Below are positions 36,001-48,000 of a DNA stretch of 64,000 bases, piece after piece. The position numbers were made by a program. The first letter of the stretch is position 1. Each line of letters begins with the position of its first letter. The stretch comes from Escherichia coli (lineage in GTDB: Bacteria > Pseudomonadota > Gammaproteobacteria > Enterobacterales > Enterobacteriaceae): assembly GCF_003334385.1 (NCBI RefSeq), contig NZ_QOWN01000007.1, one strand, 5' to 3'.

Positions 36001-39000
36001 TAACCAAACAATCTGCAGCAGACAGTTGCAATTCTCGCAGTGCAGAAAGATAAACTGCCGGATGGGGTTTCCCATGCTTTTCGTCATCAGCACTACAAAT
36101 CACCGAAAAATAATGCTGAATATTGAGTTTTGTCAGTACAGCATCGATCACCTGGTAAGATGAAGAGGTTGCCAGCGCCAGTTGATAGCCACTCCGGCGC
36201 AAAAAAAATAACACGTCCTGAACGCCTGGCATCGCTTCGCCCGTCCCGGCAATCAACGTAGTGATCAGGCGGCGAATCTCACTTTCCAACAGTGCGGGTT
36301 CAATGTGTAAATGACAATATTCACACCAGGTTTGGGCAATCTCATCCAGCCTTTTACCTTTAGTCAGTCTTATACACTCTTCGTCACTGACACATGCGCC
36401 CCACCTTGCCAGTGCTCCCTTTTGTGCCTCACGCCATAACCCTTCCGAATCAATGATGACGCCGTCCATATCAAAAATGACTGCTTTACAATTAAACATT
36501 GTTCCTCGCAATAAAGCCTGGCACCACACCAGGCTTGTCGTCATCAGGAAATGGTGGCGGTCTTCCCTTCACACACTTGCTGATTTGAGAATCCCGGTTG
36601 TTCGACGCGAATAAACGGGCAAATAATAAACGCTATCACATACAGGGTGGTGTAAGCGATAACCACACCAATAGTACTGAAATAAGGCAGAAGTACCACG
36701 GCGATTGCCGGAGCAAGGAAGTTGGACAACCCGGCTGAAAGGTTATAAACCGAAATAGCTGCTCCTTTATGTTTCGGTTCCAGTGCCGGGAAAACGGCTG
36801 CCATCGGTACGAATGCAGCAACAAAGATCCCCAGTGCCACCGCAGGTATCAGCGCCATAGCAAAGTTATGACCGAAATGTTGCGGCATGTAGTAGAACGC
36901 CAGGCTTGAAAGCGCCATTCCCACGCAACCAAACCAGCGAACAACTTTCATCCAGCCCATTTTCTCTGCCAGCACGCCCCAGAATACGTTAGAGAAGATG
37001 GTGGTAAAGAAGAAGACTGCCCAGACCTGCAACCACTCAGAGGTGGTAAAGCCCAGCTCATCAACAAACATCATCGGCATAATTACGGCGAATCCGAATA
37101 AAGATAAGGTGTTGATAATGCGAACAATACTGGAAAGCAAAATATTGCGGTTGGTATAAAGCAAAGTCACCGCACGGCCCAGTTCGCTAAACTTCTCTTT
37201 TGTGGTTAGGTTTTGCATATGGCGTGGTGTTTCTACTTTGCGCATAGAAATTAACGCAACAGCGCCACCAACCCCACAGAAGGCCAGCGCCAGCCATAAT
37301 GTTCCCATTTCGCCAATAAGCGGAATGGTAAAACTGGGGATGTAGCTGCCGAATACGCCGATACCAATAGAGTAAACTGCCCAGAACCAGCCCAGAGCAG
37401 CACTGGTGCTGTCACTGCGTACGTTATGGACAATCGCCACAATAAAGGCGTAGAGGAACAGCGGATAGGCTAGGCCACGAATACCATAAAACAGCAGGAT
37501 TAACCCATAGTTCGCCTGCCCCAGACCAAAGACCAGAAACAGCACGTGAAATACGCACCACAGCACAAAGCCGATAAACATGGTTTTTTGTGGCGTAATA
37601 ATTTCGGCAACTACGCCGGAAACCCAGGCGGAAAGCGCTGCCGCCAGGCCATAGAGCGTAAAGGCAAAGGAGGCTTCTGCAGGCGTGAAACCCAGTGCTT
37701 TAATGTAATGCGACAGGAATGCCAGTTCAAAACCGTCTCCGGTCATAAAGATGGCAATGGCAATATATCCCCACACCAGATTTAAGGGTAATCCCAGCCA
37801 TTGTTTATTTGTTAACGACATAGTGACCTCGTTTGTAGGATACAAAACGCCGCTCCGGTGCAAACACCGGAGGGCATTTGTGACAGATGTTATTGATTGC
37901 GATAGTTCAGGTCGTTGTGATACAGCGCAGTAAACTGCTGATATCGTTGCATCAGCGCATTATGACGTTCAGGATCGCTGCGCCAGGTTTTGAAGATTTC
38001 AGGTTTTTCACACACTGCCGCCAGTGGTTTTCCCGCAGCAAGACAGGCCAGACGCGCGGCTCCCAGCGCCCCACCCGTTTCACCGCCTTTATGCGTCACC
38101 ACTGGCATATCGAGAATATCGGCCAGTAACTGCGCCCAGAATGGACTTCTCGCCCCCCCACCTACCAGCGAGCATTGCTCAATTGCCGTACCGCTTTCTT
38201 GCAGGACTCGCAGCCCATCGGCAATACCAAAGCTGACGCCTTCCAGCACTGCATATCCCATTAGCGCACGCTGACTGGAGTGTGTCAGCGCCCAGAACAA
38301 TCCCCGGGCATGAGGATCGTTATGTGGCGTACGTTCACCAGAAAGATACGGGAGGAACATCGGTGCACTGGCTTTGTCTGCATCAGAAAGTTGGGCAATC
38401 TCTTCCAGTAACTCTGTTTCCGTTACCCCCACCAGACGGCAGAACCATTGCAGACAACTGGCGGCACTGAGCATTACACTCATCTGGTGCCATAAATTCG
38501 GTAGTACGTGACAGAAAGCATGGACTGCTGATTGCGGCGCAGGACGATAGGCATCTGTCACTACAAACAACACCCCGGAAGTTCCCAAAGAAATAAACGC
38601 ATCTCCGGGAGAAACGGCCCCCACACCAATTGCGCTCACGGCGTTATCGCCACCGCCACCAGCAACTACAACCGAAGATGTCAGCCCCCAACGGCTGGCA
38701 ACTTCAGGGGAAAGAGTGGCAGAAACGTCACAACCTTCCACCAGTTCCGGCATATTCGCCCGTGTCAGGCCACATTTTTCCAGCAACGAATCTGACCAGT
38801 CGCGTTTTTCCACGTCGAGCCACAACGTGCCAGCAGAATCCGACATATCGGAAATCTTTTGGCCGGTCATTTTGAAACGCAAATAGTCTTTCGGCAGTAA
38901 AACGGTGGAAATGCGCGCAAAGTGCTGCGGCTCATGGCGCCGTACCCATAGCAATTTGGGGGCGGTAAATCCAGGCATCGCCAGGTTTCCCGCTACCTGA

Positions 39001-45000: not shown

Positions 45001-48000
45001 CTTCGCAGATCCTCATGCCAGAGCGGTAATTTGTGGCCTGGGTATGGAGCGAGATCTGGATAATTTACTCGCCTTGTATATCGCTGGATTATGCGGAATT
45101 GGTTATGGTCTGCGCCAAATTCTCGACGCTCAAACAGCGCAGGGAGTAGTGAGTAAAAATATCGTTATTAGCGGCGGTGCCGGGCAGCATCCACTGGTAC
45201 GACAAATTCTGGCAGATACCTGCGGTATTCCGGTCATTACCACGCAATGCTGCGAACCGGTTTTATTAGGCTCGGCCATTCTTGGTGCTGTCGCCGGAAA
45301 TATTGCACCTTCTGTTGGCGAAGCGATGCAACAATTCACCCATGTGGATAAATATTATTATCCGCAAGAACGCTATCAATCTCTTCATCATCGTCGATAT
45401 GAGGCCTATAAGCAGTTGCAGCATACTGCAAAATTACTCAGAGACTAATTAACCAGCCGCCTGACGCTGTTTTCAGGCAATCACTAATAACGACTCACTC
45501 CGGTAATATCCCGGAGTGCATTCATCTGCACCCTAAAAACGAGGTTTATATGTCCAGAAATAATAAACAGTGGTTGGGTTTGCCACTGCATCTGATATGG
45601 GGATATATCGCCATCGCAGTATTTATGACTGGTGATGGTTTCGAACTCGCATTCTTATCGCACTATATTAAATCGTTAGGCTTCACACCTGCGGAAGCCT
45701 CTTTTGCCTTTACGCTCTACGGCCTGGCGGCTGCCCTTTCCGCCTGGGTTTCTGGGGTAGTAGCGGAAATCATCACGCCGCAAAAAACCATGCTGATTGG
45801 TTTTGTCCTATGGTGCGTATTCCATGTTCTGTTTCTGGTCTTTGGATTAGGACAGGCAAACTATGGGTTAATCCTGCTGTTTTACGGGATTCGTGGTTTA
45901 GCGTATCCGCTATTTCTCTACTCATTTATCGTCGTTATTATTCATAACGTGCGTAGCGAAAATTCCAGTTCTGCTCTGGGTTGGTACTGGGCGGTATATT
46001 CAGTAGGGATCGGTGTTGCTGGCAGTTATATTCCCAGTTTTACGATACCGATTATGGGTGAAATGGGAACCTTATGGCTGGCACTGGCGTTCTGCTTTGC
46101 TGGCGGTGTCATTGCCATGATCTCCTTGCGTCATGTTAAAACGCCTGGACATATGCATAATTTAACTCCCCGTGAGAAGTTTGCAGAATTAAGTCGGGCA
46201 GTAACTTTACTTTATACCAACCGCAATATTTTTCTCTCCAGTATTGTGCGCATTATAAATACCTTATCGTTATTCGGTTTTGCGGTCATTATGCCAATGA
46301 TGTTTGTGGATGAACTGGGATTCACCACCTCTGAATGGTTGCAGGTCTGGGCGGCATTTTTCTTTACCACTATTTTCTCTAATATTTTTTGGGGGATTGT
46401 GGCAGAAAAAATGGGCTGGATGCGTGTTATTCGCTGGTTTGGTTGCCTCGGGATGGCAGCATCAAGTTTAGCGTTTTACTACATGCCGCAATACTTTGGT
46501 CACAACTACTGGATGGCAATGATTCCGGCGATTGCTCTGGGAACTTTTGTTGCTGCATTTGTGCCGATGGCCGCTGTCTTCCCGGCACTGGAACCAAAAC
46601 ACAAAGGTGCTGCAATCTCGGTTTACAACCTCTCTGCGGGTATGTCTAACTTCCTGGCTCCGGCAATTGCCGTGGTGTTATTACCGTGGTTTAGCACTAT
46701 CGGTGTGGTCATTGCCTATACAGCATTGTATCTATTGGCCTTTGTCCTTTGCGCATTCATTCGCGTTGAGCAGCCAGGATTCAGTTCTGCGCCAGTGACT
46801 GAGAAGGCATTGAATATCTCCTGAAAAACGAAACGCATCAGGCACTCATCCTCTCCCTCATGGGAGAGGATGATTTCACATCAGGCAATAGTGACTTTGT
46901 TATCGAGATAAACGTCCTGCACGGCGTTAATCAGTTTCACGCCGTCAGCCATCGATTTCTTAAATGCTTTCCGCCCCAGAATCAGCCCCATTCCGCCTGC
47001 GCGTTTGTTGATAACCGCAGTACGCACTGCATCGCTGAGGTCAGTTTCACCGCCCGCAGCACCGCCGGAGTTTATCAACCCAGCCCGACCCATATAGCAG
47101 TTAGCTAACTGATAACGCACCAGATCAATCGGGTTTTCGCTGGTCAATTTGCTGTAAACACGATCGTCGGTGTAACCGTAATTAATTGCTTTATAGCCGC
47201 CGTTATTTTCCGCCATTTTTTGTTTGACGATATCTGCACCGATGGTTGCCGCCAGATGGTTTGCCTGACCGGTCAGGTCGGCGGAAACATGGTAATCAAC
47301 GCCATCTTTCTTAAAGGCGGAGTTACGCAAATAGGCCCACAGCACTGTCACCATACCCAGCTCGTGCGCACGTTCAAAAGCCGCAGAAATTTCTTCAATC
47401 TGGCGACGTGACTCTTCCGAGCCAAAATAGATAGTCGCACCAACCGCAACCGCGCCCATGTTGAACGCCTGCTCCACGCTGGCATACAGCGTTTGATCGT
47501 AGGTATTCGGGTAACTTAGCGTCTCGTTGTGATTAAGTTTGACGAGGAATGGAATGCGATGCGCATAACGCCGCGATACCGACGCCAGCACGCCGTAAGT
47601 TGACGCCACACAGTTACAGCCCGCTTCGATCGCCAGTTCAACAATGTTTTTCGGGTCAAAGTAGAGCGGGTTAGCAGCAAATGAAGCTCCGGCAGAGTGC
47701 TCAACGCCCTGGTCAACCGGCAGAATAGAAAGATATCCTGTGCCAGCCAGACGCCCGGTGTTGTACAACGTCTGCATATTACGTAACACCGCTGGCGGGC
47801 GATTATTGTCAATCATTACGCGGTCTACGTAGTCATGTCCGGGGAGATAAAGCTGGTCAGAAGGAATTGTCATACAACGGTGCTGTAAAAGGTTGTCGGC
47901 GTCTTTGCCAAGCAACTGCGCAATATCTGTCATTACTATGCTCCCGTAAATTCCGATTGGATATCGGCTATGGATTGTCCTGGCCCGCCTTTTGCGGGCA

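Follow-up and report, generated by a model that had tools for sequence, protein, structure and literature searches.

The inverted dalT and rbtT transporter genes of the Escherichia coli pentitol island are diverged paralogues

The window, a 64,000-nucleotide stretch of E. coli contig NZ_QOWN01000007.1 (assembly GCF_003334385.1), carries the well-known E. coli C-type island for ribitol and D-arabitol (pentitol) catabolism. Our reading, to which we give a probability of about 0.9, is that this known island consists of two modules placed back to back, that the transporter genes at its ends are ancient, diverged paralogues, and that in E. coli its core does not invert and the transporter copies are not being homogenized. 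One module would comprise dalR with dalD-dalK-dalT (and a HAD-family gene), the other rbtR with rbtD-rbtK-rbtT. The two catabolic modules, unrelated to each other, would be transcribed outward from a central pair of regulators, and each would end in the gene for a polyol/H+ MFS transporter of its own, a member of the RbtT/DalT/CsbX family. The transporter genes form an inverted repeat because the operons are laid out as mirror images. Strong purifying selection would have held the proteins at 85% identity while the DNA drifted to 77% and synonymous sites saturated, and such divergence would leave the pair effectively inert as a substrate for RecA-dependent recombination. The layout of the E. 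coli island was already known from the literature of 1982–1998, as far as citing papers (PMC6685057, PMC12307932, PMC6805351) relay it; they refer to the description of the dal and rbt genes in Klebsiella (Heuel et al., 1997, J Bacteriol 179:6014; Heuel et al., 1998, Microbiology 144:1631) and of ribitol-arabitol and galactitol genes as alternatives at one locus (Link and Reiner, 1983).

The island fills the yegS-fbaB interval, which in K-12 is taken up by gat, the galactitol operon. The lipid kinase gene yegS (34873-35772, plus strand; annotated by RefSeq in an E. coli record of 100% identity) is the conserved left chromosomal flank. Downstream of dalT lies a minus-strand gene for a HAD-family sugar-phosphatase (35846-36499; NCBIfam HxpB-like/HAD matches), which moves with the dal module: almost every such module, among them those of Vibrio and Psychromonas, has it beside dalT. 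The rest of the left half consists of dalT (36544-37821, minus), dalK (37890-39353, minus; an FGGY-family D-xylulokinase, TIGR01312 XylB at 636 bits against a cut-off of 380), dalD (39367-40734, minus; a D-arabinitol 4-dehydrogenase of the mannitol dehydrogenase family, NF043014 DalD equivalog at 756 bits against 600) and dalR (40947-41888, plus). The last encodes a SorC/DeoR-type sugar-binding regulator, with NCBIfam DeoR(Bac)/LsrR matches and orthologues that carry Pfam Sugar-bind. On the right are rbtR (41891-42922, minus; a LacI-family regulator by NCBIfam matches, with Pfam LacI/Peripla_BP in its orthologues), rbtD (43084-43833, plus; a ribitol 2-dehydrogenase of the short-chain dehydrogenase family, from SDR family matches and RefSeq coordinates), rbtK (43844-45448, plus; a D-ribulokinase of the FGGY pentulose kinases, TIGR01315 at 920 bits against 409) and rbtT (45550-46824, plus). 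The conserved right flank is fbaB (46881-47933, minus; class I fructose-bisphosphate aldolase, NF006706 at 814 bits and RefSeq annotation). The same mirror-image order, with divergent regulators in the center and transporters outermost, is annotated in an E. coli chromosome of 100% identity, and K. pneumoniae, Raoultella and E. cloacae share the gene order. The yegS flank also borders the loci of Klebsiella, Raoultella, Leclercia, Enterobacter and Citrobacter. An earlier note on this DNA had placed dalT and rbtT at exactly these coordinates, bracketing dalK, dalD, dalR, rbtR, rbtD and rbtK as found here.

DalT (425 aa) and RbtT (424 aa) are both members of the RbtT/DalT/CsbX family. Each covers positions 1–401 of the 401 in the TIGR00897 profile, with whole-protein NCBIfam scores of 514.0 and 514.7 bits, respectively (cut-off 375). 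The dal and rbt genes are predicted to form operons, dalD-dalK-dalT and rbtD-rbtK-rbtT, in which each transporter gene comes last, behind genes for a polyol dehydrogenase and a pentulose kinase (spacers of 10–101 nt). From orthology to the characterized Klebsiella genes, DalT would be a D-arabinitol transporter and RbtT a ribitol transporter; the two are 86–88% identical to their K. pneumoniae counterparts, and the titles of papers on these genes point the same way. A BLASTP comparison of DalT with RbtT gave 361 identities over 425 positions (85%, one gap, E = 0), which is far above chance and falls within the 85–90% claimed beforehand. The description of the genes as near-identical, on the other hand, does not hold for the DNA. 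In a full codon alignment, dalT and rbtT are 77.0% identical, with 51% identity at third positions; dS is about 1.8, which is saturation, dN is 0.096 and dN/dS is 0.05. The longest identical runs measure 26 bp and 23 bp, followed by six of 17 bp. When codon columns were shuffled, the longest run averaged 23 bp and reached 26 bp or more with a probability of 0.28, so the observed maximum is at chance level. The long identical stretches of the proteins therefore reflect purifying selection and not DNA identity.

A repeat search returned a single inverted repeat with arms of 1,256 nt that are 78% complementary and lie 7,682 nt apart, which bears out the proposal of a repeat of about 1.3 kb around a core of about 7.7 kb, made of inverted paralogues at the outer ends of both pentitol operons. 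The left arm (36589-37844) spans dalT codons 1 to about 411 and 23 nt of upstream sequence that includes the ribosome-binding site; the right arm occupies 45527-46782. An upstream motif, AAAACGAGGT, is common to dalT and rbtT on reading the sequence. The spacers between kinase and transporter genes hold a pair of candidate hairpins. That in the dalK-dalT spacer (CTCCGGTG-TTTG-CACCGGAG, 37853-37872, minus strand), recognized by eye, has a putative counterpart in the rbtK-rbtT spacer (CACTCCGG-TAATATC-CCGGAGTG, 45496-45518, plus strand), to which a terminator-like scan also pointed. This spacer hairpin is the only feature we singled out when the island was scanned for promoters and terminators. 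Promoter-like sites in the island were fewer than in shuffled sequence, terminator-like sites numbered 18 against a shuffle mean of 12.6 (sd 3.6), that is, within about 1.5 sd, and an Rfam search gave no match inside the island.

The distribution of the island was surveyed in 5,426 complete E. coli genomes. Its core is present in 331 and is chromosomal in all 331. An intact left junction was found in 331 genomes and an intact right junction, including rbtT, in 301, both collinear with the window; the form with two transporters accounts for about 300 of the 5,426. Most E. coli genomes match the window region only from fbaB onward, and fbaB itself was found in at least 5,416. The E. coli C strains NCTC122 and C122 are 99.9–100% identical to the window over the core and left junction. 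A second island haplotype was also seen, in 27 genomes: it lacks rbtT and coexists with gat, and strain XJ34 is one example of the rbtT-less form.

The earlier note had the island arise from a single ancestral polyol operon that was duplicated and then diverged. In such a scheme the whole would be a tandem-inverted duplication, or rbtT a recent in-place duplicate of dalT, and the mirror symmetry suits it: each side has a regulator, a dehydrogenase, a kinase and a transporter, the transporters are 85% identical and both kinases are of the FGGY type. However, the dehydrogenases (Mannitol_dh for DalD, SDR for RbtD) and the regulators (SorC/DeoR-type, Sugar-bind, for DalR, and LacI-type for RbtR) belong to unrelated families. 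Homologous counterparts are confined to the transporters (85%) and the kinases, DalK and RbtK, which share just 24% identity, and the saturated dS of the transporter genes also speaks against a duplication. Each module, moreover, exists by itself elsewhere: dalR-dalD-dalK-dalT-HAD in Vibrio, Psychromonas, Mangrovibacter, Klebsiella indica and others, and rbtR-rbtD-rbtK-rbtT in Erwinia and Enterobacteriaceae RIT693. In a neighbor-joining tree, E. coli DalT clustered with the DalT proteins of other Enterobacteriaceae, with E. coli RbtT outside, in 291 of 300 bootstraps; a pairing of E. coli DalT with RbtT occurred in none of the 300, and the sister group of E. coli RbtT was poorly resolved (137/300). 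Because the families are unrelated, the modules occur separately and RbtT falls outside the DalT clade, we infer that the E. coli island is a fusion of two modules and not a duplicated operon. Operon duplication was rejected on the non-homologous dehydrogenases and regulators, and we consider it very improbable.

The earlier note had also proposed that homologous recombination between the transporter genes inverts the core and swaps which transporter is linked to which operon. If the pair were recombination-active in E. coli, a RecA crossover would flip the 7.7-kb core and yield two isomers with chimeric transporters. Since both genes have their 5′ ends toward the core, the products would be in-frame chimeras, in which each operon retains its own transporter gene in the 5′ part and acquires the 3′ part of the other. 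The proposed swap thus stands for the 3′ parts but not for whole transporters. Heuel et al. (1997) state in their title that DalT/RbtT hybrids are active, and inversion chimeras would therefore probably be functional. The geometry of the repeat is right for inversion, one identical run of 26 bp is present, and the homologous pair clearly exchanges sequence in Raoultella and E. cloacae. Against this stand the 77% DNA identity and the absence of any run above chance length. The earlier note would have given up recombination if identity were too low or too fragmented, with no identical runs above about 25 bp, and if long reads showed no isomers; the sequence is essentially in that state, as only the 26-bp run reaches that length and it does not exceed chance. 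Shen and Huang reportedly set the lower limit for RecBCD-dependent recombination, in 1986, at about 23–27 bp. The runs of 26 and 23 bp sit at this limit and may allow very rare exchange.

Complete genomes gave no sign of the predicted isomer. The query was a synthetic junction that ran from the yegS/HAD flank straight into the 3′ end of rbtK in reverse complement. This inverted junction was found in one place in 0 of the 5,426 E. coli genomes, a count that rests on consensus assemblies, which are blind to low-frequency isomers within a culture; the two halves occurred apart in about 306, and the standard junctions were collinear in 301–331. Ten Raoultella genomes, read with a 3.3-kb flank in which an isomer would change the neighbors, were all in standard order, despite arms that are 98–100% identical over the first 570–760 nt. 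In K. pneumoniae, all 10 places examined with 10-kb flanks were likewise standard, although places that share neighbor proteins were merged, which may hide isomers. The E. coli island thus shows neither the arm similarity nor the occurrence of both orientations among relatives that would mark an invertible segment. At the level of fixed differences, inversion of the E. coli core is largely refuted, and a recombination-active pair seems to us even less probable than an operon duplication. This structural stability means that assemblers and annotation pipelines need not expect orientation isomers here.

Link and Reiner, writing in Nature in 1982, are said to have described 1.4-kb inverted repeats in E. 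coli C and to have entertained an early transposon idea. The 1.26-kb arms match those repeats in size and position, and the repeats are probably dalT and rbtT. In the least probable of the readings, a composite transposon bounded by the inverted repeats would have delivered these catabolic genes to E. coli. Repeats about 1.3 kb long do lie at both ends of the island, and its distribution is patchy (331/5,426 genomes). Both arms, however, are complete transporter genes on which purifying selection acts (dN/dS 0.05), and annotation shows no transposase or recombinase within or beside the island. The island is chromosomal in 331 of 331 genomes, and across E. coli, Klebsiella, Raoultella, Leclercia, Enterobacter, Citrobacter and Superficieibacter it keeps to the yegS-fbaB site. 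Many islands have just one arm, and none was seen elsewhere on a chromosome or on a plasmid, flanked by target-site duplications. With arms that are not insertion sequences with a transposase, and a location that does not vary, the composite transposon was rejected.

Back-to-back modules with diverged transporter genes thus remain the preferred account of the E. coli island, and other genera show what the same architecture can do. The identity of its arms ranges from 77% to 100% depending on genus. The Raoultella dalT/rbtT pair is 95% identical overall, with mosaic blocks of 97–100%, and the E. cloacae M-7 pair has blocks of 97–100% identity in the 5′ part covered (rbtT to 780 nt). Such mosaic near-identity indicates gene conversion, in this case without any detected inversion. 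Since the same inverted pair recombines in other genera, inertness belongs to the E. coli alleles and not to the architecture. A joint reading, which we hold tentatively and at somewhat short of even odds, is that the mirror-image transporter pair is, across the Enterobacteriaceae as a whole, an evolutionarily active recombination substrate. The copies in Raoultella, E. cloacae and, less so, K. pneumoniae may have been homogenized repeatedly by gene conversion; other lineages may have lost one copy, and the E. coli pair may have escaped by divergence, as a "frozen" end state. Past exchanges, and not simple vertical descent, could lie behind the mismatch between transporter phylogeny and operon context. 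For the window itself little is at stake, as a textbook catabolic island is confirmed; the comparative by-products are of modest interest for operon evolution and for the concerted evolution of paralogues.

The tufA and tufB genes of Salmonella and the rrn operons are paralogues that undergo concerted evolution or inversion and are more than 98% identical. The transporter genes resemble them as inverted paralogues in one replicon, and the Raoultella and E. cloacae pairs show similar conversion-type mosaics. The E. coli pair differs from them in its identity, 77% against more than 98%, and is without conversion tracts or inversions. The rtl-atl region of E. coli C, noted for "genotypic exclusion" with gat (Link and Reiner, 1983, as relayed by citing papers), occupies the same yegS-fbaB site as the window and shows no substantive difference from it; the rbtT-less haplotype alongside gat in 27 genomes is the addition made here. 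The closest parallel outside E. coli is the dal/rbt cluster of K. pneumoniae (formerly K. aerogenes), which has the same ten-gene mirror layout from yegS to fbaB (HAD-dalT-dalK-dalD-dalR/rbtR-rbtD-rbtK-rbtT), two paralogous transporters at its outer ends and proteins 73–88% identical to those of the window. Its transporter genes, however, are 84% identical in DNA with a dS of 0.72, figures that apply to the 5′ part (the first 870–906 nt, rbtT extending to 906 nt), whereas those of E. coli are 77% identical over their full length with a dS of 1.8.

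The two transporter genes at the outer ends of the pentitol island, dalT (36544–37821 from its ATG, minus strand, 425 amino acids) and rbtT (45550–46824, plus strand, 424 amino acids), lie where the earlier note had placed them, as both an ORF listing and a repeat search confirmed. A longer, TTG-started version of the dalT ORF extends to 37863. The encoded proteins share 361/425 residues (85%, one gap) and score 514 and 515 bits against the NCBIfam RbtT/DalT/CsbX MFS family (cut-off 375). The genes form the sole long inverted repeat of the region, with 1,256-nt arms (36589–37844 and 45527–46782) that are 78% complementary and 7,682 nt apart. 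Each arm begins 23 nt ahead of the start codon, the ribosome-binding region AAAACGAGGT being common to both, and peters out about 40 nt short of the stop codon. NCBIfam profile models assigned the genes between the transporters as dalK (xylulokinase), dalD (D-arabinitol 4-dehydrogenase, equivalog model, 756 bits), dalR (SorC/DeoR-type sugar-binding regulator), rbtR (LacI-type regulator), rbtD (short-chain dehydrogenase) and rbtK (FGGY pentulose kinase, 920 bits); a HAD phosphatase gene lies downstream of dalT. A 12.3-kb stretch matches E. coli chromosomes at 100% between yegS and fbaB; in most E. coli genomes the match begins only at fbaB, and the island in the E. coli C strains NCTC122 and C122 is 99.9–100% identical. 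Link and Reiner reportedly described 1.4-kb inverted repeats around these genes in Nature in 1982, whose size and position would fit dalT/rbtT. The feature is real, and its arrangement was already known: this is the ribitol/D-arabitol island of E. coli C and Klebsiella, on which primary work includes Link and Reiner (1983, Mol Gen Genet 189:337) and Heuel et al. (1997, J Bacteriol 179:6014; 1998, Microbiology 144:1631).

Both kinase–transporter spacers contain a GC-rich hairpin followed by the common AAAACGAGGT region: 37853–37872 between dalK and dalT (minus strand, stems CTCCGGTG/CACCGGAG) and 45496–45518 between rbtK and rbtT (plus strand, stems CACTCCGG/CCGGAGTG). These hairpins may be intra-operon RNA processing or stability elements. 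An inverted repeat, AAATAAAAGCAAGCGCAGAAG/CTTCTGCGCTCACCCTTTTTT, at 35771–35844, where yegS and the HAD gene converge, looks like a bidirectional terminator at the left island edge. Elsewhere in the window, Rfam matches at the gathering threshold were two Sib antitoxin RNAs (20087–20235 and 20422–20564), CyaR (33895–33980), a TPP riboswitch upstream of thiM (54705–54801) and a JUMPstart element (4225–4263), all expected for this chromosomal region of E. coli.

The description of the paralogues as near-identical does not hold for DNA. Codon-based alignment gave 77.0% identity, with only 51% at third positions; the longest identical runs are one of 26 bp, one of 23 bp and six of 17 bp. Synonymous divergence is saturated (Nei–Gojobori dS ∼1.8, dN 0.096, dN/dS 0.05). 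When codon columns were shuffled, the longest run averaged 23 bp and one of at least 26 bp occurred with P = 0.28, so the observed maximum lies within expectation. With the saturated dS, this attributes the long identical peptide stretches to purifying selection on two old genes; reading them as a sign of recent duplication or homogenization was rejected on the same DNA divergence.

In established work, recombination in E. coli needs a minimal processing segment of about 23–27 bp, becomes log-linearly rarer as sequences diverge, and is opposed by mismatch repair. On this basis, 23% divergence with a single run of threshold length makes an extremely poor substrate. The core is present in 331 of 5,426 complete E. 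coli genomes, chromosomal every time; a HAD–dalT–dalK probe was covered to at least 80% in one place in 331 genomes and an rbtK–rbtT–fbaB probe was covered in 301. Inversion was probed with a junction query joining 1,244 nt of the yegS/HAD flank to 1,250 nt from the rbtK 3′ end in reverse complement; in an inverted isomer some 1.4 kb would separate its halves on a single strand, whereas standard genomes have them on opposite strands. The halves were joined in 0/5,426 assemblies, many of them finished, which report only each culture's consensus; some 306 genomes contain both halves as separate places. At the level of these consensus assemblies the proposed inversion of the core finds no support in E. 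coli. In this genome, dalT and rbtT are a diverged transporter pair maintained by selection and no recombination switch. In one strain, 720632 (NZ_CP025842.1, 4778221–4780247), rbtK is interrupted by IS1A.

The 5′ ends of both transporter genes point toward the core, so a crossover would yield in-frame chimeras. The 5′ part of each operon's transporter would stay in place, and its 3′ part and downstream context would come from the other operon; the transporter swap envisaged earlier would therefore be partial. Hybrids of the DalT/RbtT type are active, going by the title of Heuel et al. (1997).

The suggestion that the island arose by duplication of one ancestral polyol operon, or that it holds a recent copy of dalT, was rejected. 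Close paralogy is confined to the transporters: DalK and RbtK are 24% identical, and DalD/RbtD, like DalR/RbtR, belong to unrelated families. Scanning one genome per species, we found dalR-dalD-dalK-dalT-HAD without rbt in Vibrio, Psychromonas, Mangrovibacter, Rouxiella, Klebsiella indica and Enterobacter asburiae, and rbtR-rbtD-rbtK-rbtT without dal in Erwinia piriflorinigrans and Enterobacteriaceae RIT693. In a bootstrapped neighbor-joining tree of 40 full-length transporter proteins, 291/300 replicates placed E. coli DalT with its DalT counterparts from Citrobacter, Leclercia, Enterobacter, Klebsiella and Raoultella and left E. coli RbtT outside that group; the two E. coli proteins paired in 0/300. 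The best reading of these sequence comparisons is that two independent modules fused, each bringing a transporter of the same family.

Elsewhere in the Enterobacteriaceae, the majority of composite islands have a single, dal-side transporter, with fbaB 50–750 bp from rbtK (for example Leclercia UBA3338, K. oxytoca, K. spallanzanii, R. terrigena, Enterobacter JUb54 and Superficieibacter; loci L003, L005, L007, L010, L011, L022, L023 and L046); islands with both transporters as an inverted repeat are in the minority. In K. pneumoniae the copies are 84% identical in DNA over the first 870–906 nt (dS 0.72), alike in ten genomes. In E. cloacae M-7 (L056) they are 89% identical over 780 nt with 97–100% blocks, and both ends of the 9,285-bp contig fall at codon 260, once in each copy; this resembles a break in the assembly of the kind expected where the remaining inverted repeat is identical. 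The Raoultella loci with the inverted pair (L008, L049, L080–L089) include R. ornithinolytica and Raoultella sp. BIGb0138, whose copies are 95% identical over their full length (dS 0.12), with mosaic 97–100% blocks and runs of 182–263 bp, and same-genome copies tend to pair (171/300 and 214/300 replicates). In ten further Raoultella-type genomes they are 98.1–100% identical over the first 570–760 nt, with strain-specific mismatch patterns. This mosaic, strain-varying near-identity in Raoultella and E. cloacae M-7 indicates, as a sequence pattern, ongoing gene conversion between the inverted copies. The standard order fbaB-T-rbtK-rbtD-rbtR-dalR-dalD-dalK-T-HAD (T, transporter gene) was found in 10/10 Raoultella and 10/10 K. 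pneumoniae places of this small sample, and the inverted order in none of them. Arm identity thus forms a gradient, from the E. coli pair through K. pneumoniae to Raoultella at 95–100%.

Another haplotype of the pentitol island, with about 82% identity to the window, occupies this yegS site in 27 complete E. coli genomes, for example XJ34 (L002, 3963–19524), SC434 (L100, 10949–24591) and EC12 (L101, 4969–18542). In these three examples it lacks rbtT, and rbtK directly adjoins gatR-gatDCBAZY. SC434 and EC12 have a frameshift in rbtK as well as a fusion of truncated rbtR and rbtD. Along with the arm-identity gradient and conversion without detected inversion, this haplotype is a by-product of the comparison. 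Since rbtK runs into the gat genes, pentitol and galactitol genes coexist in it, in contrast to the classical "genotypic exclusion" of the two.
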